A DNA stretch of 54,711 bases from Anaerolinea sp. GTDB lineage: Bacteria; Chloroflexota; Anaerolineae; JAAEKA01. This document shows, one piece after another, positions 32,137-48,171 of this stretch (positions within the stretch are counted from its first letter, which is position 1; each line of letters opens with the position of its first letter). Below the pieces are notes generated by a model. That model had not been told where the DNA came from. It worked only from the letters and a program-made list of their open reading frames with translations, and did not search any database. The stretch lies in contig JACSRL010000495.1 of NCBI GenBank assembly GCA_014879765.1, positions 1 through 54,711 on the forward strand. The letters run 5' to 3'. The translations under genes and the position numbers were made by a program.

Positions 32137-32190
32137 AATAGACCTCCTTGTTGGTCCAGGTTTGATTGGGGTCGCAAGGTTGCGACCTAT

Positions 32191-33697: not shown

Positions 33698-33704
33698 GTC
33701 AACG

Positions 33705-34816
33705 CTAGGACGTGAGAGGCAAGGTGAAGAAAAAGCTGCTGCCCTGGCCAGGGCCGGGGCTCTCTGCCCAAATGCGGCCGCCGTGAGCTTCCACCAGGTG
33801 TTTGCTGATGGTCAGGCCGATGCCGCTGCCGCCGCCGGCCCTTGAGCGCGATTTGTCCACCCGATAAAAGCGCTCGAAGACGTGGGGCAAATCGCCCCTG
33901 GCGATGCCGATGCCGTTGTCTGTGATGGCGACCAACACATGGTCATGCTGGCGGCTGGCCCGGACGACGACTGCGCCGCCCGGCGGCGTGTACTGCAAGG
34001 CGTTGCCCAGCAGGTTGAGCAGCACCTGCATGATGCGGCCTGGATCGACGAACACGGCGGGCAAGTCTGCACCCGCGGCGCTTGTCAAGCTGACGTCCTT
34101 GTCCTCGAACTGAGGCCCTAGCCGTTCGACCGCGGCGTCGATCAATGCAGAGATCGCGCTTCCTTGGCATTTGATCGGGATCTGGCCGGCTTCGGCCCGG
34201 CTCAGTTCCTCCAGGTCTTGCACCAGGCGCTGCAAACGCGCCGTCTCGCGCTGGGCGCTCAAAAAGGTAGCCGCTTCAGGCGCCACAACGCCATCGGTCA
34301 GGGCTTCCAGGGTGCTGCGGATGCTGCTTAACGGCGTGCGCAACTCGTGGGCGACGTTGCCGATCAGCTCCAGGCGGCGCTGCTCGGTCTGTTCCAGGGC
34401 CTCGGCCATGCGGTTGAAAGACATAGCCAGATCACCCAGTTCATCAGGGCTGATCGCCTGGACGCGTTGATGATAATCCCCGCCGGCGATGCGCCGGCTG
34501 GCCTGCGTCATGGCTTGCAGCGGCCCAATGATACGCCGGGTGGTGATAGCGCTGACAATCACGGCGGCAGCAATGCCGGCCAGCGTCGCCACCAGGATGA
34601 CCTCGTTGACCGCAGCGTGGAAGCTGGCGTTCAGATCGGACGCCTGTTGCGGCCCGCCGCGCAACGCTGCCTCCATATCAGCGATGTGGTGTTGGATGGC
34701 GGTTACCGCGTGGAAGTTGGCTGTCGCCGCCAGCACGACAAAAGCAACCGCAATGATCAGCAAATAGGAGATGAGAAGCTTCCATCCCAGGCTGCGGCGC
34801 AGCGCGTCCAGTAGCT

Positions 34817-34820
<4 letters not shown>
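33705..34820 (-). CDS. sensor histidine kinase (TM-HAMP-HisKA-HATPase)
   Basis: H-box VAHELRTPLSSI. N-box LLNLLGNALQYTP. G-boxes DNGIGI and GGSGIGL. Confidence 0.9.
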
Positions 34821-35506
<686 letters not shown>

Positions 35507-35658
35507 AGGGAGCAGTATAGCATGATGCAGAGAACTTGGGAAGCGATTGAGCGCTGAAGCGCCGGGCGCTTGATCGATCAAACACCCGGCGCTTTTGACT
35601 GGGCAGCCGCAAGCCAGCGACTTCACCCAATCATGCAGTTACCCAGTCACCCAGTCCC

Positions 35659-36513
35659 TCACTCATGTTCGCCGGTCATCTCGACAAAGTCGCCATGCCA
35701 GCTGTGATACCAAACCTGGCCCGTGGAACCGTTGACGCTGAGCATTCCGCTGATCTCGCCATCGGTCAGCGTGTGAATGGTGTAGTAGCCGTAGAAAGGC
35801 TCGGCCTCGTCGCCGGCCATCACGCCCGTCAGGTTTGCGTCCAGCCAATCCTGGGCCGCGACGATGGCTTCCCCAGAGCTGACAGCTACGTCGCCGCTGG
35901 GGAGACGGAAGCCGCCCATCATACCCCGACCCATCATGCCCATGCCGCCCTGGACCATGTGGCCATACTTTGCGTTCCACATCATGTTCGGGCCGGGCTC
36001 TGGATGGACGGCGCCGCTAACGGGATCGATCAGCAGTTCCATGGCCCCAATGCCGGTGCTCGTTTCGTGAACTTCGACGTAGAAGTTGTTGCTGAACTGC
36101 ATGATCTCAGCGATCTCCAGATCGGGGTTGCCGTAATCGCTCAGGTATTGCTCGGCAACCGCCTGGGCGTCATCCAGAGTCAACGACTGGCCCGTGGGAT
36201 TGGCCTGACCCCACAGCGGGCACTGCGAGGGATCCATCGCGCCTGGACCCCAGCCATGGCCACCCATCATGCCCATGCCGAAACGACCCATCATACCTCT
36301 GACACCATTCCAGAAGCCGCCGCCCATCATGTCAGAACCACAGTCAGTCGGAGCAGACTGGCTCCAGTTGCCGTTGCCCATCATGCCTTGGCCCCAATTG
36401 CTGCCGGAGCGCCAGGGCATCTGCCCCTGAGCCAGCGCAGCGCCGGCCAGCAAACCCACCAACAACAGCGCGGCCAGGCTGGCGCTGAACAGGGTTTTTG
36501 TTTTCTTGCTCAT
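35659..36513 (-). CDS. secreted Met/Gly-rich protein with two PepSY-like modules
   Basis: Start at ATG 36513 or 36516, after GGAGG. Signal peptide KTLFSASLAALLLVGLLAGAALAQG. Repeated MMG/GMG blocks (GQGMMGNGNW, GMMGRFGMGMMGGHGWG, GGMGMMGRGMMGG). Confidence 0.65.
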   Translation of the reverse strand: MSKKTKTLFSASLAALLLVGLLAGAALAQGQMPWRSGSNWGQGMMGNGNWSQSAPTDCGSDMMGGGFWNGVRGMMGRFGMGMMGGHGWGPGAMDPSQCPLWGQANPTGQSLTLDDAQAVAEQYLSDYGNPDLEIAEIMQFSNNFYVEVHETSTGIGAMELLIDPVSGAVHPEPGPNMMWNAKYGHMVQGGMGMMGRGMMGGFRLPSGDVAVSSGEAIVAAQDWLDANLTGVMAGDEAEPFYGYYTIHTLTDGEISGMLSVNGSTGQVWYHSWHGDFVEMTGEHE

Positions 36514-36880
36514 CATTACCTCCATCGGTGTGTCGGCCGGCTGCTCTAGCGGAGCAAGCCGGTGTTGATGCGTCAGTGTCCTCATTCTATGCCCGCATTA
36601 TGACAGAAATGTGAAGGCCCAATGGACGTTGCGTAACAAAAAAGCCAGAATCTGTTGTGGTCAGAGACATTGTGCATTGAATGATCGCGAGGCGTCCCGC
36701 CGGGTTGGCTGCGAGTCAGCCGCCAGAGCCGGGCGGGGCGCCCTGGAGATCGTGGAATCGCTGCATCATCTATCTGACCACAACAAAAGACGGGAAATCA
36801 AGGGACCGGGGGAGCTTAGGGAGCTGGTGGCACGGAGCCGTTCAAGTTCCACCGAGCTCCCCTGGGTTCCTCTCCGCTCC

Positions 36881-37213
36881 TCACAGCGCCGGCGGCAAGA
36901 TACCCACCGCGTACAAAATAGCCTCGACCTGCCAGGTGGCCAGGCGATAGCACACCCGCTGCCCTTTGGGATCGCCGGTCACCAGACCAGCCTGGCGCAG
37001 GACGGCCAGTTGCTGCGAGACGTAGGGCTGCGGCCGGCCGCACAGGCTGACCAAGGTGTTGACGTCGCAGACCTGCCCGCCGGCCAACGCCACTAGCAAG
37101 CGCAGCCGGCAGGGATGGGACAGCGTATGAAAGATGGATGCCGCCTGCTGCAGCGCAGCTTCCTCGATGGAGGGGGCTACCAGTTCCGTCGCAGTGTCGG
37201 CAATGCACGCCAT
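36881..37213 (-). CDS. ArsR/SmtB-family transcriptional regulator (110 aa)
   Basis: ORF trimmed to ATG 37213, preceded by GAGGAGGA. Motifs FHTLSHPCRLRLLVAL and PQPYVSQQLAVLRQAGLV. Confidence 0.85.
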   Translation of the reverse strand: MACIADTATELVAPSIEEAALQQAASIFHTLSHPCRLRLLVALAGGQVCDVNTLVSLCGRPQPYVSQQLAVLRQAGLVTGDPKGQRVCYRLATWQVEAILYAVGILPPAL

Positions 37214-37262
37214 CTCAGAAGTCCTCCTCGTCGTTTCAGGAGAAGCCAGGCAGCACGTCAGG

Positions 37263-38315
37263 TTATTCATCGTCGTCAGTCGCCGCAATGGCCTGCACGG
37301 CTGGTTCGATGCTCAGCAACAGCAAGAGCGTGATGATCACAGCCGAGGTCAGGCACCAGATGCAGACCGCCCGGATCACGAAGGGCTCCAGGTAGGTCAG
37401 GTAGAGCGAGAAGAGCACGCCGAACAGAGTGAAGACGAACAGGGCGATGGACGCCAGCTGGGCCAGGGCCTCGCTGCCGCGCCGGCTGACCAGCCAGGCC
37501 ACCAGGATGATCACGTAGCCCACGGCGCCCACCACGCCCACCGGTAGCACGCCGAAAAGGCGGGAGTAGGGGCTGCTCTGCACCGTGTTGCAGTCGCCCA
37601 CCGGTCCACAGACGGCCTCGACCATCTGGGTCTCGACGTAGGACAGGTACAGCGCCACGCCCAGCCCCAGCACAATCAGCAGTGGATAGAGCCAGGGCGC
37701 GCGCTGGGCCACCGCTCCGGCTACGCCGGATGCGCCGCGTGTCAGGCTGACCCCTGTGTAGATCAGCGACGCGACCATGCCAACCATGATGGCGATGGCG
37801 AGGCCAAAGCCGTTGGGCCGCACGGGCGCGATCGCCCCCAACTCCGCAGCGAAGTCAGCATCAAGCTGCAGCAGGCTGGGTTGCTCAGCGCCGCCAGCCG
37901 CCAGGGTTTGAGCCACCAGCGCCGGCATCTGCTGCGGGATCTGCTGCGAGCCGACCAGCACCTGCTCGTTCATGATCAACAAGGGCACGCCGACTTGCTC
38001 CTTGGGCACGCCGTGGGCCGCCGCTGTCGCGTAGAGTTGGTCGGTATCCTCCAGCGTCACGACTTCGATCAACTTGATCTCCAGTTGGCTGCCGTACTGC
38101 GCCTGCAAGGCGGGCAGCACGCCGTTCAACACATCCTCGCAGTGGCCGCAACCCTCCATCCAGTACATCACGCCGCGCGCCACCGGCGGCTGCGGCGCAG
38201 TCTCGCGTGCATCGATGGCGATCGGCGCGGCATACACAGGCAGCGGCGTTGCCGCCGCCATCGCCAGTGTCGCCACGCAGGCTAAAGCAATGCTCAAGAT
38301 CGTCCAGTTGCGCAA
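37263..38315 (-). CDS. thioredoxin-like domain fused to a VKOR (vitamin K epoxide reductase) family membrane domain
   Basis: Signal peptide. WMEGCGHCEDVL (CxxC). VKOR loop cysteines CGPVGDC and active-site CIWC within 4-5 TM helices. Confidence 0.8.
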   Translation of the reverse strand: MRNWTILSIALACVATLAMAAATPLPVYAAPIAIDARETAPQPPVARGVMYWMEGCGHCEDVLNGVLPALQAQYGSQLEIKLIEVVTLEDTDQLYATAAAHGVPKEQVGVPLLIMNEQVLVGSQQIPQQMPALVAQTLAAGGAEQPSLLQLDADFAAELGAIAPVRPNGFGLAIAIMVGMVASLIYTGVSLTRGASGVAGAVAQRAPWLYPLLIVLGLGVALYLSYVETQMVEAVCGPVGDCNTVQSSPYSRLFGVLPVGVVGAVGYVIILVAWLVSRRGSEALAQLASIALFVFTLFGVLFSLYLTYLEPFVIRAVCIWCLTSAVIITLLLLLSIEPAVQAIAATDDDE

Positions 38316-38316
38316 C

Positions 38317-38592
38317 TCAGCTTTCTCCTTGTTTTGGCTGTACGAACAGCGCTGCGGCCGCAGCCTCGTTCACCCGGCACTGCGGCTGGATCAACAGGTC
38401 GAAGGGATTGATCGCCTGGCCGTCGACCAGGATGCCGGGCGAGGATCGCAACTGGTAGCGCTCGGCCAGCGCCTGGCCCTCGTCACTCTCCAGGTCGATG
38501 CGGGTGAAGGGAATGGCGTGCTGTTCCAGGTAGCCCAGGATCTTACGGCTGCGCCGGCAGCCCTGGGCGGGAAGAATCGTGACTTCAGGCAT
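38317..38592 (-). CDS. glutaredoxin-like small protein with CxxS motif (91 aa)
   Basis: ORF trimmed to ATG 38592, preceded by AGGAAG. Motifs VTILPAQGCRRSRKILGYLEQHAIPFTRIDL and SSPGILVDGQ. Confidence 0.65.
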   Translation of the reverse strand: MPEVTILPAQGCRRSRKILGYLEQHAIPFTRIDLESDEGQALAERYQLRSSPGILVDGQAINPFDLLIQPQCRVNEAAAAALFVQPKQGES

Positions 38593-38600
38593 AAGTCTTC

Positions 38601-39065
38601 CTATCGAAACGCCGGCATGTCGCCCAGCATCGCCTGCAGCTCGGCCAACTGGCCGGCATAGGCCGGCTCCAGCAGCGGCGGGCACTCGGCCGGCTTCTGC
38701 TGGCCGGCGATCAGCTTCAGAGCGAAGGTGAAGCAGGTCGGCTGGCCGCAGAGGCGGCAATTGGTGCCGGGCAGGAGCTTGAAGGCAGCCATGGGCGCCG
38801 GCCGTTGGCGCGCCTCGAAGTCGGGCTCGATCTCGTTGCGGCGCTCCCAGGCGCGGTTGACCAGCTTGACCAGACCATCGACCTCATCGACCGCGGCCTG
38901 CCGGTCCTCCACGTTGCTGACGGCGATGCGATCGGCCTGGAAGACGACGAAGTGGCCGGCCTTGCGCCAACTCAGGGCCGGCACAGCCGGGTTGTAGAGC
39001 GCGCCGCGCAGGGTGGCGTTGAGGTAGGGCAACGCCTCGCGGATGTCGACCGGCACAAAGGCCAT
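38601..39065 (-). CDS. Fe-S-cluster-domain (PF04060-like) protein, 5' end apparently severed by the IS
   Basis: C-terminal LPGTNCRLCGQPTCFTFALKLIAGQQKPAECP resembles the corrinoid-protein/RACo-type Fe-S domain. ATG 39065 lies 1-8 nt from the IS end. Confidence 0.65.
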   Translation of the reverse strand: MAFVPVDIREALPYLNATLRGALYNPAVPALSWRKAGHFVVFQADRIAVSNVEDRQAAVDEVDGLVKLVNRAWERRNEIEPDFEARQRPAPMAAFKLLPGTNCRLCGQPTCFTFALKLIAGQQKPAECPPLLEPAYAGQLAELQAMLGDMPAFR

Positions 39066-39141
39066 GGCGCTGATGAACCTTAAGAATTTATTTCGGTAAT
39101 TGTGATTTTTGTGGCATAATGGCCATCAGGAGGTGGCTGCT

Positions 39142-39465
39142 ATGCCCAAACGTCGCTATGTTGACCTGAAACCTGCCAATGTGCAGGAGCTGGAGGCCAT
39201 CAGGGATCGCCATCCCAAGGCCTACATGCGTGAGCGAGCCACGGCCTTGTTGAAGATCAACGCTGGGACTTCACCGCATCAGGTGGCGCGGCATGGTCTT
39301 CTGAAGTCAAGAGATCCGGACACGATCTACCAGTGGATCGACCGCTTTGAAGATGAAGGCGTTGCAGGTCTGGTGATCCGGCAGGGTCGTGGGCGCAAGC
39401 CCGCTTTTTCCCCCTCAGCACGAGAAAGCCGAGGAGGCGAAGCAAGCGATCTTACTGATCCTTAG
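39142..39465 (+). CDS. IS630 transposase, N-terminal HTH part (orfA)
   Basis: ATG 39142 preceded by AGGAGG (MPKRRYVDLKPANVQELEAIRDRHPKAYMRERA..GRGRKPAF). Confidence 0.75.
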   Translation: MPKRRYVDLKPANVQELEAIRDRHPKAYMRERATALLKINAGTSPHQVARHGLLKSRDPDTIYQWIDRFEDEGVAGLVIRQGRGRKPAFSPSARESRGGEASDLTDP

Positions 39466-40300
39466 ACGGTGTCCCAGCCAATTCAACCATCAGCGTAGTC
39501 GTTGGACGTTGTCCATGCTGATGCAGAGCTGTGAGTGGTTGGATGTCACCACCGAGGGTGGCATGAGCCAGATCTTGAAGCGTCTGCACATCAGTTACAA
39601 ACGTGGTCGCGACTACGTGCACAGTCCGGACCCAGATTATGAGCAGAAACGCAAGCTGATCAAGCAGGTGCAAGAACGTTGTCAGGCTGATCCAGAACGT
39701 TTTGTGTTCCTCTATCAGGATGAGCTGACCTACTATCGCCAGCCCACCCTAGCTTGTGCCTACGAAGCTGCAGGCCACCAACAACCTCTGGCTCAACGCA
39801 GCCATAGGTCCAACACTGCACATCGCATTGTGGCAGCGATGAATGGTGTGACCGGCCAGGTGACCTATCGCCAACGTTCTCATACCGACACCAAGTGCTT
39901 GTCTGCCTTCTGGTACGACCTGCGTCAGGCCTATGCGGATGCCGAGATCATCTATGTGGTGCTCGACAACTGGCCTGTCCACTTCCATCCCGATGTGTTG
40001 GCGCCGTTCCAAGCGCAAGATTTGCCCTGGCCACCCAAGTTGCCAGCGAATTGGCCTAAAGAACCCTGTGCAAAAGTCACTCAGGACAACCTGCCGATCC
40101 AGTTGCTCTGTCTGCCAACCTATGCCTCTTGGCTCAATCCCATTGAGAAGCTCTGGCGCTGGCTCAAACAGGACATTCTCCATCTTCATCGGCTCAGCGA
40201 CGATTGGCCAGTTCTGAACCAACAGGTAGCCCAATTTCTGAACAAATTCGGACAGGGCTCTCCTGAGCTTCTCCGCTACACCGGCCTATTACCGCCTTAA
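39389..40300 (+). CDS. IS630 transposase, DDE catalytic part (orfB, +1 frame relative to orfA)
   Basis: Motifs RSRWTLSML, FLYQDE, VVLDNWPVH and SWLNPIEKLW (DDE triad pattern). No independent ATG or RBS. Overlaps orfA across a T5C5 tract. Confidence 0.75.
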   Translation: MGASPLFPPQHEKAEEAKQAILLILRRCPSQFNHQRSRWTLSMLMQSCEWLDVTTEGGMSQILKRLHISYKRGRDYVHSPDPDYEQKRKLIKQVQERCQADPERFVFLYQDELTYYRQPTLACAYEAAGHQQPLAQRSHRSNTAHRIVAAMNGVTGQVTYRQRSHTDTKCLSAFWYDLRQAYADAEIIYVVLDNWPVHFHPDVLAPFQAQDLPWPPKLPANWPKEPCAKVTQDNLPIQLLCLPTYASWLNPIEKLWRWLKQDILHLHRLSDDWPVLNQQVAQFLNKFGQGSPELLRYTGLLPP

Positions 40301-40311
40301 ATTCTTAAGGT

Positions 40312-40380
40312 TCATAAGCGCTCAGCGCCCGGCTCGCAGGGCGGCGTGAAGACGTCGAGTTCATAGCTAGGTATCAACAT
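40312..40380 (-). pseudogene. displaced 5' fragment (22 codons) of the Fe-S-domain gene; stop codon supplied by the IS terminus
   Basis: AGGAGG-CAGC-ATG at 40380, 12 nt after the FmdE stop. Reads MLIPSYELDVFTPPCEPGAERL, then TGA inside the IS end. Confidence 0.5.
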
Positions 40381-40394
40381 GCTGCCTCCTATGT

Positions 40395-40997
40395 TTAGCG
40401 ATCGTAGCCCGAACACGGAATGCACATGATCTTGTCGCCCACGACGCGGCGGTAGGCGTGAGCCACCAGCTCGCCGCACTGGTCACACTTGGCGAAGCCC
40501 ATTACCTCGGGCAGCCAGTTGTAGGGATAGTCGAAGACCGGGCCGACGGTCAGGATTTCGCTCTCCGGCGCGTTCCAGACCAGGTCCACCAGCTCCATCT
40601 GGTCCTCTTCAGAGATCTCGTCGGGCGAGACGCCAGCCGCGCGCTGCTGCATGAAGGCCGACGCGGCGATCTGCTTCTGCAAGGTTGGCTTGTAGGAGAC
40701 GCGCACGGCCCGCTCGCCATCCTTGTCGATCACGGTCACAGCCAGCTTGCCCAGCGGGTTCTTGCGCAGATTGCCCTTGCCGAAGGTGCAGCCGGTGGTG
40801 TATTGCACGCCGTCGCCGAAGCACATGCCGCCGTGCTCCTGGCCGGTCTCGATGATGGCGTAGAGCTGTGTGCCGCCGCTGCGCTTGACGTCCAGCGCCC
40901 GCAGCGCGGCCAAACCCACGCGCACGCCGGCCACGCTGGCCCAGCAGCGGTGGCCGTGAAACTTTAACGTGTCGGTCAAGATCTGAGTGTCGTTCAT
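40395..40997 (-). CDS. FmdE-domain protein with C-terminal zinc-ribbon (200 aa)
   Basis: ORF trimmed to ATG 40997, preceded by AAAGGA. Motifs FHGHRCWASVAGVRVG and CDQCGELV...CIPC. Confidence 0.8.
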   Translation of the reverse strand: MNDTQILTDTLKFHGHRCWASVAGVRVGLAALRALDVKRSGGTQLYAIIETGQEHGGMCFGDGVQYTTGCTFGKGNLRKNPLGKLAVTVIDKDGERAVRVSYKPTLQKQIAASAFMQQRAAGVSPDEISEEDQMELVDLVWNAPESEILTVGPVFDYPYNWLPEVMGFAKCDQCGELVAHAYRRVVGDKIMCIPCSGYDR

Positions 40998-41029
40998 GAT
41001 AGGTCCTTTCAAGCGACGGGATGTGCGCG

Positions 41030-41275
41030 CTATTGGGCAGCGACGGGCTCGAGCAGCGCGCAGATTTGCTTCACGGTCAACACGCGACCGGCGCTGACGA
41101 GCTTGCCGTCGATAGCCAAGCCGGGCGTCAAGAAAATGCCATAGGCCATGATCGCTTTGTAATCGTGAATGTGCCGGACAGTAGCATCGAGACCGATTTG
41201 CTCCACAGCCAGCTCGGCGCGCGTCAGCAGTACCTCGCAGGTAAAGCAGCCAGGTCCCAAGATGTTGATCTCCAT
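41030..41275 (-). CDS. thioredoxin-family small protein (redox-active disulfide protein 2 / Thioredoxin_3-like)
   Basis: ORF trimmed to ATG 41275, preceded by AAAGGAG. Motifs MEINILGPGCFTCEVLL and TPGLAIDGKLV. Confidence 0.8.
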   Translation of the reverse strand: MEINILGPGCFTCEVLLTRAELAVEQIGLDATVRHIHDYKAIMAYGIFLTPGLAIDGKLVSAGRVLTVKQICALLEPVAAQ

Positions 41276-41295
41276 CTTATGCTCCTTTGGGCAGT

Positions 41296-42054
41296 TCACA
41301 TCACACCCAACAAGATCAAGGCGCGCTGCACGGCCAGCAGCACCAGGAATCCAGCGAAGATGCGGCTGAGAGTCAACGACTTGACCCGCTTAGCCATGAA
41401 GCGCGCGCCTAGCCAGGCGCCGATCACGGCCGTGATCGAGGTCAGGATCAGCATCAGCCAGTCGAACTGCGCGTCGCCCATGTGTGCCGCGAACGCCGTG
41501 AATGAGGGCACCGTCACGATCACCGAGTTGGTGGCAGCGGCGATGCGCGCTGTGTAGCCTACCATCACCAGCGTGGGCATCATCAGGAAGCCGGGGCCAA
41601 CGCCCAGAAAGCCGGCGAAGATGCCGATCAGCCCCGAGAAGAAGCCGGCCTTGACCCGCGTGCGGTCGCTGATCTCCAGGGCTTTGCTGTCGTCCATCTT
41701 GGGCGGGAAGGCCATACGGAAGGCCAGGAAGACCAGGACGCCGACGTACATCCACCAGACGATCTCAACGCTGACGAACTGCAACAGCCAGACGCCGATG
41801 GGCGCGACGATGGCGGTGATGATCACCAGCGGGAGGGCCGTGCGCCAGTCCACCATGCCGGCGCGGGCAAAGGTGATCGCCCCAGCGATGGCGGTCAGGC
41901 CATTGAGCCACAGCGACCAGGGCATGATGACGTGTTTGAGGTCGAAGCCGAACAGACCCAGCACGGGTGTAGCGATGAAAGCCACGCCCAGGCCCAACAT
42001 GCCGGCCAGAAACGAAAGGACAAAAAGCAGTGCGCTGAGAATGACGTAGAGCAT
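41296..42054 (-). CDS. TauE/SafE (DUF81) family anion-export permease
   Basis: ORF trimmed to ATG 42054, preceded by AAGGAGA. About 8 TM helices. Duplicated G-rich motifs LAGMLGLGVAFIATPVL and FAGFLGVGPGFLMMPTL. Confidence 0.85.
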   Translation of the reverse strand: MLYVILSALLFVLSFLAGMLGLGVAFIATPVLGLFGFDLKHVIMPWSLWLNGLTAIAGAITFARAGMVDWRTALPLVIITAIVAPIGVWLLQFVSVEIVWWMYVGVLVFLAFRMAFPPKMDDSKALEISDRTRVKAGFFSGLIGIFAGFLGVGPGFLMMPTLVMVGYTARIAAATNSVIVTVPSFTAFAAHMGDAQFDWLMLILTSITAVIGAWLGARFMAKRVKSLTLSRIFAGFLVLLAVQRALILLGVM

Positions 42055-42077
42055 GGAGATCTCCTTGCTCGTAAGCC

Positions 42078-42428
42078 TCAACTGGAGGCAGGCAGGAATT
42101 GGTCGATGGCGTCCATGGCGTGGGCAGCGTAGATCGAAGCCGGGCCGCCGCCCATCATCAGGGCGACGCCGATGGTCTCCAGCAGCTCGGCGCGGCTGGC
42201 GCCGGCCGCCACCGCGTCGTGGGTGTGATAGGCGATGCAGCCGTCGCAGTGAACGGCGATGCCGATGGCCAGGGCCATCAGCTCTTTGGTCTTGGCGTCC
42301 AGCGCGCCGGCCTCGACTGCCTTTTTGTGCAGGCGGGCAAAGCCGGTCATGGGGCCGGGAAGCTCCCGTCCCAGTTGCGCCAGGCGCTGTTCCAGGTGTT
42401 GGTGGTAAGCAACGTAGTCAGTGGTCAT
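42078..42428 (-). CDS. carboxymuconolactone decarboxylase/AhpD-like family protein with CxxC
   Basis: ORF trimmed to ATG 42428, preceded by GAGGA. Motif LDAKTKELMALAIGIAVHCDGCIAYH. Confidence 0.85.
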   Translation of the reverse strand: MTTDYVAYHQHLEQRLAQLGRELPGPMTGFARLHKKAVEAGALDAKTKELMALAIGIAVHCDGCIAYHTHDAVAAGASRAELLETIGVALMMGGGPASIYAAHAMDAIDQFLPASS

Positions 42429-42448
42429 GATGTCCTCAATTCTGTGTT

Positions 42449-42519
42449 CGCAGACTTCGGAAGTCGCCGGTCTTAACCCAGCAAAGCCAGTTTGCATCCG
42501 GTGACTTCCGAAGTCTCGG
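42449..42519. repeat. inverted pair of GACTTCGGAAGTC-containing 22-mers
   Basis: CGCAGACTTCGGAAGTCGCCGG (42449-42470) and CCGGTGACTTCCGAAGTCTCGG (42498-42519). Each core is itself palindromic. Confidence 0.8.
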
Positions 42520-42522
42520 GTC

Positions 42523-43242
42523 CTAGGCCGCCAGCGCCGGCTCGAACAGGTCCGTCCAGCCTGTGCCGTTGGCAGATATGGGCCGGGCCAGGGTGAAGTA
42601 TTCGTGACAGGCGAGGCGCTCGGCTTCGGCCTCAGGCGGCCCGGAGAAGGGCGGATTCTGGCTGGCGTGGCACTGCATCGCGCGCACCTTGGCCAGCAGG
42701 TGGTCGGCGATGTCGATAGCCGCCACCGGGCCGCCGGCCAGCTCGCGGCCGGGAACCACGCCGCAGCCCTGCAAGGTCGCCTCGGAGGGCGCCAGATAGT
42801 AGAGCCGTGCGGACAGCCCGGCTTGGTCGAAGGCGGCTGTGGTGAAACGGTGGATGGCCAGGTGATCCGGGTGGCCGGAGATGCCGTCGGGGCCGAAAGT
42901 GATCACGGCCTCCGGCTGCAAGGCCCTTATTATATCGACCAGTTGGCCAACAATCGTGGCAGGGTCGGCGGCTGCCAACTGGCCGTCAAGATAGCCCAGA
43001 AAGCGCACGCCGGCCAGCCCCAGCGCAGTGCCTGCAGCCTGTAGCTCCTGACTGCGCACCTGCGCCGTCTCCTCGGCAGACAGCTGGGGGATGCCGGCTT
43101 CGCCGCGTGTGGCGCAGACCAGCGTCACCCGCGCGCCCTGCGCTGCGTACTTAGCCAGCGTGCCGCCCATGGGAAAGCTCTCATCGTCAGGGTGGGCCAG
43201 CACGACCAATACGGTTGGCGTGTTCGATGTAGCGTCCATCAC
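42523..43242 (-). CDS. PIG-L/LmbE-family N-acetylglucosaminyl deacetylase (BshB/MshB-like)
   Basis: Motifs VLAHPDDESFPMGGTL, GEAG and HPDH. The start is GTG 43242 or ATG 43239. Confidence 0.85.
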   Translation of the reverse strand: MMDATSNTPTVLVVLAHPDDESFPMGGTLAKYAAQGARVTLVCATRGEAGIPQLSAEETAQVRSQELQAAGTALGLAGVRFLGYLDGQLAAADPATIVGQLVDIIRALQPEAVITFGPDGISGHPDHLAIHRFTTAAFDQAGLSARLYYLAPSEATLQGCGVVPGRELAGGPVAAIDIADHLLAKVRAMQCHASQNPPFSGPPEAEAERLACHEYFTLARPISANGTGWTDLFEPALAA

Positions 43243-43346
43243 TCATTTCCAGTTGGCTTTGTACGACCAAATCACTCAATATGCGGTTTATTGCATGTAA
43301 AAAGACCTGCGAAAACCCTGCGACACCAGGTCGCAAGGTGTTGCCC

Positions 43347-43601
43347 TTAATTAACCGCAGCAGCGCTGGCCAGCCAGCCGCTGATATCGGCCACGCTGGG
43401 AATGCGACCGCCGGCGACCAGCTTGCCTTCGATCACCAGGCCGGGCGTGAAGAGCAGGCCGTATTTGGGGTACTCGGCACGGTCGGTGACGTGTTCGATC
43501 TCGGCTTCCAGGCCCAACTGGGCCACGGCCTCCCTGGCGTGCTCCTCGACCAGATGGCAGTTGTTGCAGCCAGGGCCGAGGACTTTGATGTTGATGGGCA
43601 T
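43347..43601 (-). CDS. thioredoxin-family small protein (Thioredoxin_3-like), second copy
   Basis: ORF trimmed to ATG 43601, preceded by AAGGAGA. Motifs MPINIKVLGPGCNNCHL and TPGLVIEGKLV. Confidence 0.8.
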   Translation of the reverse strand: MPINIKVLGPGCNNCHLVEEHAREAVAQLGLEAEIEHVTDRAEYPKYGLLFTPGLVIEGKLVAGGRIPSVADISGWLASAAAVN

Positions 43602-43636
43602 GGGGATGTCTCCTTGACGAACGGCATGTGAGGAGG

Positions 43637-43729
43637 CGTAACCCGTAATGCGTATTCCGTAATCGGAATGGAGCAACCTGGCTGCTTCATCCGGGTTACG
43701 AGTTACGTGTTACGCATTACTCGCTACGC
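43637..43729. repeat. two opposed arrays of heptad repeats (CGTAAYN / NGTTACG) filling an intercistronic spacer
   Basis: The left array is CGTAACC CGTAATG CGTATTC CGTAATC. The right array is GGTTACG AGTTACG TGTTACG CATTACT CGCTACG. The OsmC stop codon (43726-43724) lies in the last unit. Confidence 0.8.
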
Positions 43730-44194
43730 ACCCTGCTGATCGATAAGCACGATAATCTTCGGTTCGACAACAATCTCGCTCTTGACCGAGTTCGCCACCA
43801 GGCTGTACTTCTGGGCCGAAGCCAGGGCGCGGTGGATGCGCTTTTCGGTGGCGGCAGCGTCTTCGCCGGTCGCGGGGCGCACGGTGATCTCCGGGTAGAA
43901 ATAGAGGTGGGTGAAGATCTCGGTGCGGTCCAGCTCGATCTTCTTGACGCCGTCGGTGCGGCAGGTGAAGCTGACCAGGTCGATCTTGAAGCGCTCCACG
44001 GCCCAGAGGAACATCATCATCACGCAGGTGTTGGCCGCAGCGACGAAGGCGTCCTCCGGCGTCAGCACCCCTTCGTGGCCGTAGGCGTCGGGCGGCGCGG
44101 AGAACATCATCTGCGGGCCGTTGCCCATGACGATGTGGCCCCAGTGGTCGCCCTTCCATTGGACGGAGGTGGTATAGGTGGCGGTCTTAGCCAT
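43724..44194 (-). CDS. OsmC/Ohr-family peroxiredoxin-like protein (156 aa)
   Basis: ORF 43724..44416 trimmed to ATG 44194. Motifs GVLTPEDAFVAAANTCVMMMF and SFTCRTDG (two conserved Cys). Confidence 0.85.
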   Translation of the reverse strand: MAKTATYTTSVQWKGDHWGHIVMGNGPQMMFSAPPDAYGHEGVLTPEDAFVAAANTCVMMMFLWAVERFKIDLVSFTCRTDGVKKIELDRTEIFTHLYFYPEITVRPATGEDAAATEKRIHRALASAQKYSLVANSVKSEIVVEPKIIVLIDQQGA

Positions 44195-44939
44195 GAGCCT
44201 GCTCCTTGGCCGCGCAGAAGCTCTGCCAGGCGATGGCGACGGCCTCGACGTAAGCGACGTCGTCCTCGGTCGGGATGGTGTTGTAGAGGCGCACGGTGTC
44301 CATGAGTTGGGCGGGAACGGTGGACGCTCCAGCGGCCTGGCTGTTAACCGGCACGTGCAGCCCTTGTCCATAGGCCATCTCCAGGATCGGGTCCAGGGCC
44401 ATGATCTCCAGCGCACGGCCGTTGACCTGGACGCGGGTGACGGGGATGCCCGAGCCGCAGGCGCAGCCGGCGCTGCTGACCCTGGCCGGCTCGCTGGCCT
44501 CCAGCACCTTGCCCTCGGCCCGGCTCCAACGGGAGGCCATCAGGTGATCGACCTCGGCTGCGATGGCCTCAGCCAGGGCATCCACGACGGGCTGGCTCTC
44601 GGGCGTCAGACGGCGCAGCCCCTGCGGCCGCGGCAGGCCGCGCTCGGCCAGCACGTCATCCAGCAGGATGCTGGCGGCCGGTTTGTTGCTGTACAGCTCG
44701 GTGGCGCGGGCCGCGCAGCGCTTCTCGCAGCCATCCACGGCGATGGTGGGGTAGAACTTGGCGAAGGCACGGTCGCCCTCGCCGCCGGCCAGGAAGAGCG
44801 GCAGGCAGATGGTCACGGTGTCGGCTGGCCGCAGCTCCTCCAGCACCCGGAGCGCGGCCAGCCGCGTCACGGTGCCTTCGGCCATCTCCTCGCCGGAGCA
44901 GGCCACGATACCGACTTTGCGTTGGGGTAGACTGGGCAT
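44187..44939 (-). CDS. DGC-domain (putative zinc-binding) protein with C-terminal extension (250 aa)
   Basis: Motifs VGIVACSGEEMAEGTVTR and TIAVDGCEKRCA (DGC motif). Extension contains SSAGCACGSG. RBS GAAAGGA. Confidence 0.7.
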   Translation of the reverse strand: MPSLPQRKVGIVACSGEEMAEGTVTRLAALRVLEELRPADTVTICLPLFLAGGEGDRAFAKFYPTIAVDGCEKRCAARATELYSNKPAASILLDDVLAERGLPRPQGLRRLTPESQPVVDALAEAIAAEVDHLMASRWSRAEGKVLEASEPARVSSAGCACGSGIPVTRVQVNGRALEIMALDPILEMAYGQGLHVPVNSQAAGASTVPAQLMDTVRLYNTIPTEDDVAYVEAVAIAWQSFCAAKEQAHG

Positions 44940-44952
44940 GGTAGATCCTTTC

Positions 44953-45055
44953 AGAAGGGAACTGAGGGGAACTGGAGGAGCTGGGGGAGCTCAGATAGTT
45001 CCTTCGAGTTCCTCTCAGTTCCTCTCAGTTCCTCTCAGTTCCTGTGAGTTCTTCC
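44953..45055. repeat. long imperfect hairpin made of inverted 10-mer tandem repeats between the two DGC genes
   Basis: The right arm has CCTCTCAGTT three times perfectly (45011-45040) plus variants. The left arm has GGGAACTGAG, GGGAACTGGA, GGAGCTGGG and GGAGCTCAGA. The last 6 codons and stop of the upstream DGC gene lie inside the array. Confidence 0.85.
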
Positions 45056-45426
45056 GCCGCCTGCGCGACTTCCTCTGCCAGGGCGCGGGCCAGGGCGAGG
45101 CCGCCTTCGTTCAGCTCGGCGATGCCCTGGGGCTTGAACTGCTTGTTGCGGCGGTAGCAGTCCAGCACAGTGAACTCGCGCGCGGCCGCGCCGCCGGCCT
45201 GGCTGACGTTGACCGTCGCGCAGGCCAGCTTGCAGCCGTCCAGCGTGATCACCTGTGCGTCCCGCACGGCAGCCTGCGCGTCCTCGTCGCCCAGCACCAG
45301 CAGGGACAACGGCACGATCTGGGTGTCGTCCGGCCGGAGTTCCTCGGCAACCAGGTAGGCGGCCTCGCGCGTTACGGTGCCATAGCTCTTGCCGATGCCG
45401 CTGCACGGCACGATGATCACGTTCAT
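45025..45426 (-). CDS. DGC-domain (putative zinc-binding) protein (133 aa)
   Basis: Motifs IIVPCSGIGKSYGTVTR and ITLDGCKLACA. The start overlaps the gcvH-like stop as ATGA. Confidence 0.75.
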   Translation of the reverse strand: MNVIIVPCSGIGKSYGTVTREAAYLVAEELRPDDTQIVPLSLLVLGDEDAQAAVRDAQVITLDGCKLACATVNVSQAGGAAAREFTVLDCYRRNKQFKPQGIAELNEGGLALARALAEEVAQAAEELTGTERN

Positions 45427-45872
45427 TTGGCGGCCTCCGCTTCAGCCTGGGCCGTCATGACCACCAAGTATTGCTCGGCGTCCAACAGACCGGGCACGGG
45501 CCACTGCGCCGGACGCACCTCCACCAGCCAGCCGCGGCCGTAGGGGTCCTGATTGATCAGCTCCGGCGCGTCCTCCAGCGCCTCGTTGACGGCCACGATC
45601 TCGCCGTCGAAGGGCGCTTGCACCTCCAGGTCGACCTTGATGGTCTCGACGGTGGCCAGTTCCTTGCCGGCGGCCACAGACTGTCCCGGCTCAGGCAGGC
45701 TGACGAAGGCCACATCGCCGCTGGACTGCTGGGTAAAATCGCTCAGACCCAGACGGGCGACGCCGCCGGCTTCGTTCATATCCGCCCAAATGCCGTTCTC
45801 GTTGTAGAGATTGCCCATCTTCACCCGGAAGATGAACTTGTCGACGGTGGTCTCGAGATAGTCTTGGCTCAT
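45423..45872 (-). CDS. glycine-cleavage H-protein-like lipoyl-carrier protein
   Basis: Motifs GLSDFTQQSSGDVAFVSLPEPG, ATVETIKVDLEVQAPFDGEIVAVN (conserved Lys position) and NQDPYGRGWL. Confidence 0.8.
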   Translation of the reverse strand: MSQDYLETTVDKFIFRVKMGNLYNENGIWADMNEAGGVARLGLSDFTQQSSGDVAFVSLPEPGQSVAAGKELATVETIKVDLEVQAPFDGEIVAVNEALEDAPELINQDPYGRGWLVEVRPAQWPVPGLLDAEQYLVVMTAQAEAEAAK

Positions 45873-46093
45873 AGCTCCGTTCCTTTACACCCATCACGAT
45901 TTGTGCATATTTGGCAAATCGCATATGATACCGGTTGTAGCGCGTTGTTGTGTTCGACACAGCAGCTACGCTGAAAAATATCACGATTTAGGCTAATCAT
46001 GCATCTCCAAGGTCTATAATCACGCCAGGCCGGCGTGAACAGCGTCTCAGTAGCAACCGCATCGATGCGTGCATGATAGCACAAAGCAAGGCC

Positions 46094-46113
46094 CTATGCA
46101 AATTTCTGCATAG
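46094..46113. promoter_or_regulatory. 20-bp palindrome, candidate ArsR operator
   Basis: CTATGCA-AATTTC-TGCATAG lies 31 nt upstream of the arsR-type ATG (46144). It sits in the 271-nt divergent region shared with the gcvH-like operon. Confidence 0.4.
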
Positions 46114-46143
46114 AGCATAACAAGATATTTCCCGGCAAGACTC

Positions 46144-46521
46144 ATGACAAACCCCGCTGACTTCTACACTCCCTACGCCGATCGCTTCAAATTGCTCGGC
46201 CATCCCGTGCGCCTGCAGATTCTGGATGACTTGCGCCGTAACCCTGAGTGCGTCTGCCATCTGGAGGCCGCCCTGCGACGTCCCCAGCCGTATATCTCGC
46301 AGCAACTGCGTGTTCTGCGTGAGGCTGGCGTTGTGGCCGATCGTAAGGATGGCCTGAACGTCTACTATCATCTGGTCGATCCTCAAACGGCGACCCTGCT
46401 CAATGCCGCGCTTGGCCCGGTGCTGCCCGAAACGAGAAACCTGCGGGAAAAGCTCCCTGACTGCACATGCCCCAAATGTGCGCCTCCCCTGGTAGCAGAG
46501 ATTACTCTGGTTGAGAGCTGA
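46144..46521 (+). CDS. ArsR/SmtB-family metal(loid)-responsive regulator with CVC site and Cys-rich tail
   Basis: Motifs LGHPVRLQILDDL, ECVCHLEAAL, PQPYISQQLRVLREAGVV and a C-terminal PDCTCPKCAPP. Confidence 0.85.
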   Translation: MTNPADFYTPYADRFKLLGHPVRLQILDDLRRNPECVCHLEAALRRPQPYISQQLRVLREAGVVADRKDGLNVYYHLVDPQTATLLNAALGPVLPETRNLREKLPDCTCPKCAPPLVAEITLVES

Positions 46522-46750
46522 CTGAGCTCTTTGCGTCGTCCCGTGTGACACTGCAAACGGCCAGCAGAAATTCGCGTTGCCGAGACTGGGGCTTGATCTG
46601 ATGTTGTCGGCACAGATCGGCCTCATCATGCTGACCGCTGACACTTGCGCATGCATGCATTGGAAGTGTGACTTCGATCACCTGTTGGCTCTTGAACTGA
46701 GGGGTGAATGATCGTCGTCCAAACATGGTTGCGATCCTTTTCGCGTACAT
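46502..46750 (-). pseudogene. remnant of an IS3-type transposase OrfA
   Basis: MYAKRIATMFGRRSFTPQFKSQQVIEV...EADLCRQHQIKPQSRQREF resembles the RRxFTxEFKxxAV HTH_Tnp_1 N-terminus. No orfB and no terminal repeats seen. Confidence 0.35.
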
Positions 46751-47019
46751 AGTGATTCAGTTAGCTGTGTGGCCAAAACTTGAAGCGCATCACTCTAGAA
46801 CCTCGCCTGTTCCTCCCACACCGGCAGCGCGCTGAAGTCCACCAGCACCGGCCGGCCGCGCTGAAAGCAGCGCTAGGCGGTTGCCACGCCCCAGGTGCCC
46901 GTGGCGCGCCAGCTGCTCGCTGAGCCCCTGGGGCAGGTGGTTCAGGACCAATAGCACCGGCCCCTACCGGCCGCCCGTCACCGAGAAGCATTGAAGTTGC
47001 ACAGTGAGGGTCAGTGGGG

Positions 47020-47650
47020 TCGAGCTACCTGGGGCCGACGGTGGGCAACTATGTCTGATCGGAGCTGGACGCCTACGTGGCCGACCGAGCGGGGTATAGC
47101 CTGCACATCGGCCTGGGCTTCAACACCGTAGACTACTCGCCCTATACCTGAGCGGCCGCGGGCGGCACGCAGTGTTGGAGCGCAGGCAACCGGGAAGACC
47201 TGATCCTGCTGCCGGCCGACATGGTGACGCCCGAAAACCAGAACGTGACCTACGTGGTCTGCTCGCTGGACAGCACGCAGCCCAACTACCGCCTGCCCAA
47301 GTATTGGAGCGACCAGTACCGGGGGGCATATTCGGACTATGTTTATGCCCTGGCTGCGCATATCAATGGCACGCCTGCGCTCAGAACAACATCGACTGGA
47401 TCGAGCTACCCATCGGCGTCTACGGCGAGCTCAACCCGGGCGTGTCAGCATCTGCATCTTCTGCCTGCTTACAAGAGTTGGGGGGTTAACACAAGTGAAG
47501 TGGGAGGCTACTGTCATCGAGATGATCGACATTTGGGTGGACGCCTTTGCCGGTTCAGGCATCGACCTGAGCTTCGAGGGCACCAACTGCTACATCGACA
47601 AGGGCAACCGCCAGCGCATGAACGACTACGCGGCCGGCCATCTGGTGAGC
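47020..47650 (+). pseudogene. decayed gene of unknown function (in-frame stops and frameshifts)
   Basis: The protein-like reading LDAYVADRAGYSLHIGLGFNTVDYSPYT*AAAGGTQCWSAGNREDLILLPADMVTPENQNVTYVVCSLDSTQPNYRLPKYWSDQYRGAYSDYVYALAAHINGTP is broken by TGA at 47056 and 47149. It continues in other frames (NNIDWIELPIGVYGELNPG, and IDLSFEGTNCYIDKGNRQRMNDYAAGH). Confidence 0.4.
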
Positions 47651-48171
47651 GGCAGCCAGGTGAAGCCAGGCTACAGAGCGCACGACGTACCAGGCGCTTG
47701 GGGTGGTTGCGAGTGCCCGTCGGGCGAGCGTAATCACGGCTTCGGGATATTTGGCCGCTTCGAAGGCCACAGCGCTGCGCAAACTGTCGATCTCGCCCCG
47801 CAAGTGCGCAATGCGTTCCAGCCGATCCGGCAGCGGCGCGAGAAGGCTTTCGGCCCGGTCCAGCAGTTCATCAGCGGGTGATCCAAGCCGTCGTTCAGCG
47901 CTTGCGTCAGGCGCGGGCGGTCAACCAGGAACCAGGTCGGCGATTACGCGCGGCCGCTGAAGCTTCGTTTGCAGCAAGGCCTGTTGGCCAATACGAGTGA
48001 TCACGGAGTTCTTGGTCAACCTGGCACAGCGTGCCTTACCACAATGGAACGTATAACATGCGCGCGCAGAAACCAGCGCACGCATCGCACAAGAGCGTTA
48101 TGGCGAGCCTGAAGCAAGATGCAACTTACAAGCGATTGTGGCAGTGCGGCAGTGCTTATCATTGGTTCATC

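Follow-up and report, generated by a model that had tools for sequence, protein, structure and literature searches.

Gene organization at the locus

The window analysed here is the whole stretch of 54,711 nucleotides (nts) of the Anaerolinea sp. contig JACSRL010000495.1, and the subject of this work is the cluster of genes that occupies its positions 36881 to 46521, between and including two genes for ArsR-type regulators. This cluster is probably an ars regulon that contains a lipoyl-based module not described so far, whose core consists of a GcvH-like lipoyl carrier, two DGC proteins, an OsmC-like protein and, in most loci, a mini-thioredoxin. The gene list was drawn up from the open reading frames (ORFs) of the six frames and from Pfam scans over the window, and contains the following genes (Pfam E-values in brackets).

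46144-46521, + strand: ArsR_A, divergent ArsR/SmtB repressor (HTH_5, 2e-12)
45423-45872, - strand: GcvH-like lipoyl carrier, core (GCV_H, 1e-30)
45025-45426, - strand: short DGC protein, 133 aa, core (DGC, 2e-13)
44187-44939, - strand: long DGC protein, 250 aa, core (DGC, 1e-14)
43724-44194, - strand: OsmC-like thiol protein, core (OsmC, 2e-9)
43347-43601, - strand: Trx3a, mini-thioredoxin of the MTH895/ArsE family with a CNNC motif, near-core (Thioredoxin_3, 7e-23)
42523-43242, - strand: PIG-L/LmbE-family deacetylase, accessory (PIG-L, 3e-35)
42078-42497, - strand: AhpD-like CMD protein with a CDGC motif, accessory (CMD, 8e-20)
41296-42081, - strand: TauE/SafE-family anion exporter, accessory (TauE, 2e-41)
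41030-41275, - strand: Trx3b, second Thioredoxin_3 protein, with a CFTC motif, accessory (Thioredoxin_3, 7e-21)
40395-41012, - strand: FmdE-domain protein with a C-terminal zinc ribbon, accessory (FmdE, 3e-32; zf-dskA_traR, 2e-5)
38601-39073, called ORF 38601-39065, - strand: 3' part of a PF04060 Fe-S protein gene, accessory, disrupted (FeS, 2e-12)
38317-38592, - strand: glutaredoxin-like small CxxS protein with a GCRRS motif, accessory (Glutaredoxin, 4e-4)
37263-38315, - strand: Trx-VKOR membrane protein with an N-terminal CGHC thioredoxin-like domain, accessory (VKOR, 3e-24, residues 210-336)
36881-37213, - strand: ArsR_B, the other ArsR/SmtB regulator, last gene of the operon (HTH_5, 1.5e-7)

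All 15 genes had been proposed by an earlier model-made reading of the DNA letters (from here on, the sequence-only reading), and all were found again among the six-frame ORFs at or near the positions it gave; each of its domain calls was likewise reproduced by Pfam, with the glutaredoxin-like protein falling under Pfam's cut-off for Glutaredoxin (21.1 bits vs 22.9). ArsR_B is a protein of 110 aa if read from a start that has a ribosome-binding site, the same start being called in the related metagenome contig L001. The close spacing of starts and stops that had been remarked upon is also real, with gaps of -8 to 122 nts between neighbouring genes once the insertion sequence (IS) described below is excluded: the start of the short DGC gene overlaps the stop of gcvH by 4 nts, and that of the OsmC-like gene overlaps the stop of the long DGC gene by 8 nts. 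The statement that almost every product carries a Cys motif holds for about 10 of the 13 products between the regulators, but not for the GcvH-like and TauE proteins. Finally, the absence of classical ars genes from the window was confirmed by tblastn with representatives of ArsC, Acr3, ArsA, ArsD and ArsP from related loci, none of which had a match at E <= 1e-3; thus neither the pump nor the arsenate reductase that would characterize an As(III) regulon was found within the window by this search. Scans for tRNA genes and Rfam families in the window gave none.

A conserved core among variable accessories

A scan of one genome per species with the long DGC protein gave at least 353 confirmed matches among the matches listed, the best 80 of which are all from Chloroflexota, and in the protein collection this protein has more than 5,700 relatives. 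The proteins of the window were compared by tblastn with the 80 best loci, and synteny was counted over the 58 that have at least 1.5 kb of flank; the 51 loci of at least 12 kb are referred to as long loci. The GcvH-like gene, the short DGC gene and the OsmC-like gene each adjoin the long DGC gene, with their order kept, in 58 of 58 loci. A Thioredoxin_3 gene lies within 1.5 kb of this core in 50 of the 58, and an ArsR gene within 4 kb in 39 of the 46 loci in which it could be tested. The cluster is therefore not a chance juxtaposition, because its core is syntenic in every testable locus.

The conserved unit is made up of five genes (GcvH-like, two DGC, OsmC-like and usually Thioredoxin_3) together with an ArsR, and the remaining eight genes are variable accessories. 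In other words, the co-conservation that the sequence-only reading had expected of a neighbourhood comparison is seen for the five-gene core and its regulator, but FmdE, Fe-S, TauE and the other accessories come and go; and the uncharacterised thiol- or metalloid-stress system that it had proposed does exist as a co-conserved, ArsR-controlled and largely uncharacterised group, but not with the whole set of 14 genes as its unit.

Among the accessories, the AhpD-like gene is the commonest, being present in 24 loci, mostly right behind the core; its product has the AhpD core domain and weak NCBIfam matches to arsenosugar-associated peroxidase-like and ArsM/AhpD models. PIG-L recurs in about 8 loci, and its top NCBIfam models, BshB2 and MshB, are both below their cut-offs. 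TauE is present in about 10 of the 51 long loci and pairs repeatedly with FmdE (L010, L020, L021, L037, L069). Acr3 and TauE, each found in 10 of these 51 loci, never share one, which is a hint of mutual exclusion, since by a hand estimate chance would produce it in about 9% of cases, the loci are related to one another and the numbers are too small for a conclusion. Two single ORFs that join GCV_H and DGC (P0266, P0351) may be artefacts of frameshift or gene calling, because the two genes overlap by 4 nts.

Association with arsenic operons

From the 80 loci, every ORF lying up to about 9 kb from the core was collected; the ORFs were then clustered, and representatives of the clusters were scanned with Pfam and NCBIfam. 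The recurrent neighbours were the following.

ArsC of the low-molecular-weight protein tyrosine phosphatase (LMW-PTP) type: 12 loci
Acr3: 12 loci
ArsD: 9 loci
ArsA: 7 loci
ArsR-ArsC fusion: 7 loci
ArsP permease: 6 loci
Bona fide dihydrolipoyl dehydrogenase (Lpd), directly upstream of gcvH: 5 loci
Radical SAM/SPASM protein: 14 loci
CcdA: 10 loci
Membrane thioredoxin: 8 loci

Of the 51 long loci, 29 have at least one of ArsC, Acr3, ArsA, ArsD, ArsP or the ArsR-ArsC fusion no further than 9 kb from the core, when the frequency expected of a random window of 18 kb would be of the order of 1-2% (our own estimate, not a computed control). In locus L066 the genes follow one another on the same strand as an operon, ArsR-GcvH-DGC-DGC-OsmC-Trx3-ArsC-Acr3, and similar one-strand operons are found in L053, L072, L073 and L081. 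Among the neighbours, none of the mer, cad or cop families was seen in as many as five of the long loci. It is thus well supported that the core is linked to arsenic, belonging to ars operons as a conserved accessory module, and the stress sensed would appear, from this genomic context and from the CVC site of the regulator, to be specifically of the arsenic type.

Two other groups of neighbours were observed beside the core and the ars genes. Directly after OsmC, 14 Chloroflexota loci (e.g., L012, L027, L031, L036, L058, L073, L074) have a radical SAM/SPASM protein of 420 aa, which is absent from the window. Its identification as ArsS or LipA was rejected, the top models being TIGR04317 and TIGR04311, both below cut-off; models of this type describe a radical SAM maturase of a tungsten cofactor oxidoreductase and a putative metalloenzyme maturase, and the protein could be the maturase of one of the Cys-rich core proteins. 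Downstream of ArsD-ArsA, in L024, L036, L037, L048 and L058, a set of three genes recurs after ArsA, encoding a Zn_ribbon_8 protein that ends in a CGCGSGGCGCG tail, a thioredoxin-like protein of 110 aa (c48) with no family match, and a protein labelled DUF59-like by eye from its sequence; these may be further uncharacterised ars accessories.

Lipoate machinery beside the core

In the 5 Chloroflexota loci in which Lpd stands directly upstream of gcvH, the enzyme scores 497 bits against the TIGR01350 cut-off of 409. Beyond the Chloroflexota, a phmmer search with the short DGC protein gave 358 clusters at the 50% identity level, with members in Deltaproteobacteria, Lokiarchaeia and Actinomycetota bins, and four loci of this more distant group are arranged as follows.

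L089, Deltaproteobacteria metagenome-assembled genome GCA_016219185.1: ArsR-FeS-Usp-GcvH-DGC-DGC-OsmC-Lpd-LipA-LplA-like
L090, metagenome contig: ArsR-ArsR-Acr3-...-GcvH-DGC-DGC-OsmC-Lpd-LipA-LplA-Trx3-Trx3-ArsC-FeS
L084, metagenome contig: ArsR-Trx3-ArsP-Trx3-DGC-FeS-ArsC-Acr3-...-GcvH-DGC-DGC-OsmC-Lpd-LipA-LplA-rhodanese
L088, metagenome contig: ArsR-ArsM-FeS-GcvH-DGC-DGC-OsmC-Trx3-ArsC-Acr3

The Lpd and LipA of L089 both pass their equivalog cut-offs (481 bits vs 409 and 351 vs 310), as does the ArsM of L088 (285 vs 263), and the short DGC proteins of L084 and L090 share 76% and 67% identity with that of the L089 type. A lipoylated reductant and its dehydrogenase are thus found together, the GcvH-like gene being always adjacent to the rest of the core and Lpd being adjacent in the 5 Chloroflexota loci and in L084, L089 and L090. 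Of all the evidence for a central role of a lipoyl cofactor, carried by the GcvH paralogue and cycled by Lpd, these Lpd, LipA and LplA-like genes that adjoin the core are the strongest. In the window itself, a tblastn match resembling Lpd (21389-22765) was discarded, as it corresponds to MerA.

Upstream of the core, the loci L086 and L087 (JGI 3300076002) have VKOR, CobW, an aminotransferase resembling cysteine desulfurase and a Zip transporter, to which L087 adds a molybdopterin oxidoreductase; this combination of accessories also re-uses PIG-L, Fe-S and VKOR.

Residues and folds of the core proteins

The GcvH-like protein has the GCV_H fold and the motif of a lipoyl carrier, its lipoyl-lysine K79 (ETIK motif) being invariant in 70 of 70 sequences. 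It is a paralogue and not the housekeeping H protein, because it stays just under the NCBIfam cut-offs for GcvH (NF002270, 115.2 vs 117; TIGR00527, 103.7 vs 115.85) and because neither gcvT nor gcvP is found among the recurrent neighbours of the core.

The two types of DGC protein have in common three cysteines, not four, which are C8, C65 (in the DGC motif) and C69, as well as a CSG...GTVTR loop after strand 1. In the long type the invariant cysteines are 14, 45, 71, 75, 159, 161 and 242, and the last three of these belong to a C-terminal extension (residues ~150-250, with a CACGSGIP motif) that is present in the Chloroflexota type only, missing from the second DGC of the deltaproteobacterial loci, and for which no family or fold match was obtained. 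Elsewhere, fusion proteins with two DGC domains in tandem occur; these fusions and the overlap of stop and start codons suggest that the short and the long DGC work in a pair. The AlphaFold2 (AF2) model of the short protein, with a predicted local distance difference test (pLDDT) of 94, is a four-stranded alpha/beta domain of the flavodoxin/SIS type, and its search against PDB gave only generic flavodoxin, SIS and LMW-PTP-like alpha/beta folds (E >= 0.025, TM-score below ~0.5), none of them close enough to place the protein in a family. The model of the long protein, built on 20 close sequences, is poor (pLDDT 71), so that its Foldseek matches are meaningless, and its profile found no sequence relative in PDB. 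The possibility that DGC is a divergent ArsC of the LMW-PTP type or a divergent ArsD was rejected, the hhalign probability being <1% and the likeness a loose topological analogy only.

The OsmC-like protein scores 38.4 bits against the OsmC cut-off of 27.5. All 77 sequences compared have its C57, a residue that falls in the alignment on the peroxidatic Cys of Ohr (6mjn) and of Ta0195 and VCA0330, the latter two being the nearest solved OsmC-like proteins; a second cysteine, C78, is found in 76 of the 77. Trx3a passes the cut-off of TIGR00412, the MTH895/ArsE family (80 bits vs 62), and the CxxC of the Trx3 proteins is kept in 87 of 91 sequences.

Regulators and operator-like sites

Both regulators pass the cut-off of 55 bits of the NCBIfam metalloregulator model NF033788, ArsR_A with 83.4 and ArsR_B with 69.6. 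ArsR_B has no CVC pair. The CVC site and the Cys-rich tail that had been read in the divergent gene at 46144 are both there, ArsR_A having the site as ECVCHLE and the tail as a CxCPxC at its C-terminus, and nearly every one of the 39 ArsRs upstream of gcvH shares the two; the deltaproteobacterial regulators (L084, L089, L090) keep the CVC but not the tail. The ECVCHLE site aligns with the LCVCDLC site (Cys32/Cys34, helix alpha-3) of the R773 ArsR. Around the divergent promoter and within the cluster, the following sites were located.

46096-46111: O1, operator-like palindrome ATGCAgaaattTGCAT, of the form ATGCA-N6-TGCAT, over the -35 of the predicted gcvH promoter
46073-46102, - strand: predicted promoter TTTGCA-18-TATCAT with a TG before the -10, directed towards gcvH (consensus scan)
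45903-45927: imperfect ATATGC...ATATGCA site just upstream of gcvH, weak, conserved in the intergenic alignments of L005, L006 and L013
43281-43296: O2, operator-like palindrome ATGCAataaacCGCAT with one mismatch, between Trx3a and PIG-L

O1 is the sole exact match to its pattern in the window and is conserved in L004, L005, L006 and L013, and L004 and L005 also keep the -10 block of the predicted promoter. Over 1.05 Mb of related loci there are 9 exact matches to the pattern, 7 of them within 500 bp upstream of gcvH and the other 2 directly upstream of PIG-L (L005, L019). Because palindromes precede both gcvH and PIG-L, the cluster looks like two ArsR-operated units, of which the first would contain gcvH-like, DGC, DGC, osmC-like and trx3a, and the second PIG-L, ahpD-like, tauE, trx3b, fmdE, Fe-S, grx, vkor and arsR_B.

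The insertion in the Fe-S gene and the surrounding island

The genes of the cluster were as the sequence-only reading had described them, but it had overlooked an IS630-type element that lies between the FmdE gene and the remainder of the Fe-S gene, inside the latter, which it splits.

39074-40314 (1.24 kb), + strand: IS630-type insertion sequence (Pfam matches HTH_29/HTH_32 and DDE_3, 17-bp inverted repeats)
39109-39465, + strand: helix-turn-helix (HTH) ORF of the element
39389-40300, + strand: DDE_3 ORF of the element
39074-39090 and 40298-40314: terminal inverted repeats, perfect, 17 bp
40315-40380, - strand: 5' fragment of the Fe-S protein gene, 22 codons, cut off by the element

The transposase has its HTH and DDE_3 parts in two overlapping frames, as in the IS630 family, and no further copies of the 17-bp terminal repeats were found in the window, where the element is single-copy. 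The 5' fragment and residues 1-22 of the intact orthologue of 178 aa have 95% identity, and since the element stands after codon 22, the Fe-S gene is broken in the window. L001, which has 99.5% identity with the window, has no element and an intact Fe-S gene of 178 aa; the insertion is therefore recent. Its empty site GCTGAAGCGC contrasts with the filled GCTGA-[IS]-TAAGCGC, giving a net insertion of 1,242 bp in which no clean duplication of a TA target site is readable. The element cuts off grx, vkor and arsR_B from any upstream promoter and is probably polar on them. Some 18 Chloroflexota loci, as well as L084 and L086-L090, have the orthologous Fe-S gene intact.

The window as a whole is a metal-resistance island with a MerR-MerA pair, a copper-type block (29093-36585) and a two-component system, as follows.

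21356-23472: MerR-MerA pair, MerA with an N-terminal HMA domain (544 bits vs 454)
29093-31306: CopA-type P-type ATPase
32191-33291: multicopper oxidase
33705-35626: histidine kinase and response regulator
35659-36585: Met/Gly-rich, secreted-looking protein of 308 aa, with no family match

MerR is below its cut-off (134.7 vs 150.85 bits). From ArsR_A to a SulP/STAS transporter gene (48172-49881) there is a stretch of about 1.6 kb (46522-48171) with no convincing ORF; L001 aligns with the window up to 47640, beyond which it has a HicB antitoxin, a DNA methylase and a HATPase protein, and this stretch, or the break of synteny at 47640, may be the boundary of the island.

A proposed lipoamide-driven relay and its alternatives

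The interpretation to which we incline, with somewhat more confidence than doubt, is that the region is an arsenite-type ArsR regulon, lying in a metal-resistance island of Chloroflexota (Anaerolineae-like), which drives a thiol relay with lipoamide. The steps of such a relay would be: (i) the binding of As(III) at the CVC of ArsR_A, which would release this repressor from the ATGCA-N6-TGCAT operators; (ii) the induction of the GcvH paralogue, which would carry lipoamide on K79; (iii) the reduction of this bound lipoamide with NADH by dihydrolipoyl dehydrogenase, which would be the housekeeping enzyme here and the operon-encoded one in other genomes; (iv) and finally, the passage of reducing power from the protein-bound dithiol to the DGC pair (a probable heteromer), the OsmC-like protein (at C57), the mini-thioredoxin of the ArsE type and, in loci that have it, the AhpD-like CxxC protein. 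The outcome would be a reducing relay, driven by lipoamide and independent of thioredoxin reductase, whose uses under arsenic stress would be the removal of hydroperoxides and the re-reduction or de-arsenylation of thiol proteins, with ars enzymes such as ArsC and ArsM possibly among its clients where they are present. As the window has no Acr3, ArsB or ArsP, export in this genome may fall to TauE. What the sequences show directly is which genes are present, their synteny, the invariant residues, the linkage to ars genes, the CVC site of the regulator and the conservation of the operator-like sites; the effector, the way in which electrons flow, the heteromer of the DGC proteins, the substrates and the role of TauE are what we infer from them.

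There are precedents for the individual transfers. The OsmC of Trichomonas is reduced by the H-protein and the L-protein and Ohr is a lipoyl-dependent peroxidase (both as cited in PMC12440151 and PMC10332631), and in mycobacteria a lipoylated E2 serves as the reductant of AhpD (PMC12440151). In Pseudodesulfovibrio mercurii (P. mercurii) ND132, moreover, an operon ArsR5-ArsP-ArsE(PF13192)-DGC(PF08859) is induced by arsenic, its DGC protein being called "of unknown function" by the authors (bioRxiv 10.1101/2022.10.17.512643).

Several observations weigh against this relay. One of them is a paradox, because arsenite poisons dihydrolipoamide and a relay that depends on it would seem a poor defence, unless the lipoyl protein is made in excess or doubles as a chelator. 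Peroxidase activity of the OsmC-like protein is not assured, because the canonical resolving Cys (KYC/ENC in Ta0195/VCA0330) is missing, its place being taken by Ser (KYS) in both phyla. Regarding DGC, its profile gave hhalign probabilities <1% with each of the ArsC, ArsD, Trx3 and CMD profiles, and Foldseek found no informative structural neighbour of its fold. As for arsenic itself, ArsR/SmtB proteins of the CVC type can also sense Sb, Cd, Pb or Bi, and the cluster of the window stands beside mer and cop genes, not ars genes, and lacks Lpd, lipoylation genes and a known arsenite pump.

In the main alternative the lipoyl protein would itself be the ligand. Vicinal dithiols such as lipoamide are, as is generally known, the classical target of arsenite, and the dihydrolipoyl form of the GcvH-like protein might act as a chelator or carrier of arsenic, a protein-bound analogue of dimercaprol that would guard the lipoyl arms of the 2-oxoacid dehydrogenases, from which the three-Cys DGC proteins would strip As(III) or methyl-As(III) for delivery to an exporter, as ArsD serves ArsA; in a variant of the same idea the relay would reduce pentavalent organoarsenicals. 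The LipA, LplA-like and Lpd genes that adjoin the core suggest a bulk of reduced lipoyl protein, the cysteines common to the DGC types are exactly three, the usual coordination number of As(III), and lone DGC genes accompany ArsP and ArsE, with no GcvH alongside, in L084 and in P. mercurii. However, this explanation leaves the invariant OsmC-like protein without a role, DGC has no structural or profile similarity to ArsD or ArsC, and many of these operons already contain ArsC; the chelator is for these reasons rather doubtful, though still the best placed of the alternatives. Taken more broadly, it is a tentative possibility that a dedicated lipoylated protein is the working ligand or reductant of arsenic in an unrecognised detoxification pathway, with the DGC proteins as a new three-cysteine class of arsenic-handling proteins; in such a pathway the lipoylated protein would shield or repair lipoyl enzymes, or would reduce pentavalent (organo)arsenicals.

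If arsenic were left aside, the same genes could serve a general defence against peroxides, in which OsmC and AhpD would form a lipoyl-dependent peroxidase, ArsR would sense oxidants, and the proximity to ars genes would reflect their co-location in stress islands. OsmC, H-protein and Lpd are a known peroxidase trio (as cited in PMC12440151), an AhpD-like gene is often nearby, and 22 of the 51 long loci have no ars gene within 9 kb. Nevertheless, we consider it unlikely, because in two phyla the regulator has retained a CVC pair of the As(III) type, many genomes place ArsC, Acr3 or ArsM close to the core and in the same direction, the OsmC-like protein is without the canonical resolving Cys, and further oxidative-stress genes do not recur beside the core.

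The sequence-only reading had compared the cluster with a response to reactive sulfur or sulfite of the BigR type. In such a response ArsR would be a persulfide sensor, TauE the exporter, and other products would traffic sulfur, the GcvH-like protein in the manner of the LbpA of sHdr. There is a TauE gene in the cluster, both ArsRs match the BigR model weakly, LbpA-type lipoate-binding proteins function in sulfur oxidation (PMC6067878), and rhodanese and cysteine desulfurase genes are near the core in L084 and L086/L087. But the analogy fails at the regulator, with 54.8 bits for ArsR_A and 43 for ArsR_B against the BigR equivalog (NF040642) cut-off of 155, and with a CVC site that differs from the Cys pair of BigR; TauE is an occasional accessory, and the recurrent neighbours of the core are ars genes, with no persulfide dioxygenase, Blh, DsrE/TusA or sHdr genes among them, so that this response is very improbable.

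Equally remote is another soft metal (Hg, Cd, Cu) as the inducer in this organism, for although the island holds MerA (544 bits vs 454), MerR, a Cu-ATPase and a multicopper oxidase, and a CVC with a CxCPxC tail could bind Cd, Pb or Hg, it is ars genes that recur across the 51 long loci while mer, cad and cop families stay below five, and the genes past 47640 on the ArsR_A side are not tied to the cluster, because the synteny with L001 stops there and different genes follow.

Lipoamide is a textbook target of arsenite, and no described ars gene was found that deals with it; an operon controlled by ArsR and built around a dedicated lipoyl carrier would join the target of arsenite and the defence against it. 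The DGC family (PF08859), with thousands of members and no known role, would gain its first functional context. The module is present in at least 353 species-representative genomes among the matches listed and is small enough for heterologous expression, and its core genes could be flagged as arsenic-associated in metagenome bins of the Chloroflexota and Desulfobacterota type.

Relation to known systems

The sequence-only reading had found no known pathway to match these genes, and we also found no published pathway for the GcvH/DGC/OsmC set. The literature searched contained no paper on GcvH, OsmC or lipoyl genes within ars operons, and under PF08859 or "DGC domain" it returned diguanylate-cyclase papers only. 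Five systems can be compared with the cluster, of which the BigR-Blh-TauE operon is similar in joining a regulator of the ArsR family and an exporter of the TauE family in one cluster, but differs in that here the regulator fails the BigR model, there is no Blh or persulfide dioxygenase, and TauE is dispensable for the module.

The sHdr-LbpA system of sulfur oxidation, which has lipoate ligases dedicated to it, also employs a GcvH-like lipoate-binding protein outside glycine cleavage, with lipoylation genes nearby in some genomes (PMC6067878, PMC10332631). In contrast, the present module has no sHdr, DsrE3 or TusA among its recurrent neighbours, which are arsenic genes, and for lipoylation it has an ordinary LipA with an LplA-like ligase, not LipS1/LipS2; a single CCG-domain gene was found about 7 kb from the core, in L084 only.

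The lipoyl peroxidases (OsmC of Trichomonas, Ohr of Xylella and the mycobacterial Lpd-DlaT-AhpD-AhpC) share with the module the OsmC/Ohr fold, a Cys in the peroxidatic position and a lipoylated carrier, as well as the Lpd that is encoded alongside in several genomes and the AhpD-like CxxC protein that is a frequent neighbour. They differ from it because the module has Ser for the resolving Cys, is under an arsenite-type ArsR, has no AhpC and always places two DGC genes between the carrier and OsmC.

The P. mercurii operon ArsR5-ArsP-ArsE-DGC likewise places a PF13192 thioredoxin and a PF08859 DGC protein under the control of an ArsR, and is distinguished from the window by its single DGC, its ArsP permease and the lack of a lipoyl carrier and of an OsmC-like gene. 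ArsEFG of Shewanella putrefaciens (reported by Chen, Zhang and Rosen, 2019) may be placed beside it.

Lastly, compared with canonical ars operons, the cluster of the window is without a known arsenite pump, arsenate reductase or methyltransferase, and its GcvH-like, DGC, DGC and OsmC-like genes are not among the named ars genes that we found. It has nevertheless in common with them a CVC-type ArsR/SmtB repressor and an operator-like palindrome over the predicted promoter, and in other genomes its core is co-operonic with ArsC, Acr3, ArsA/D, ArsP and ArsM.

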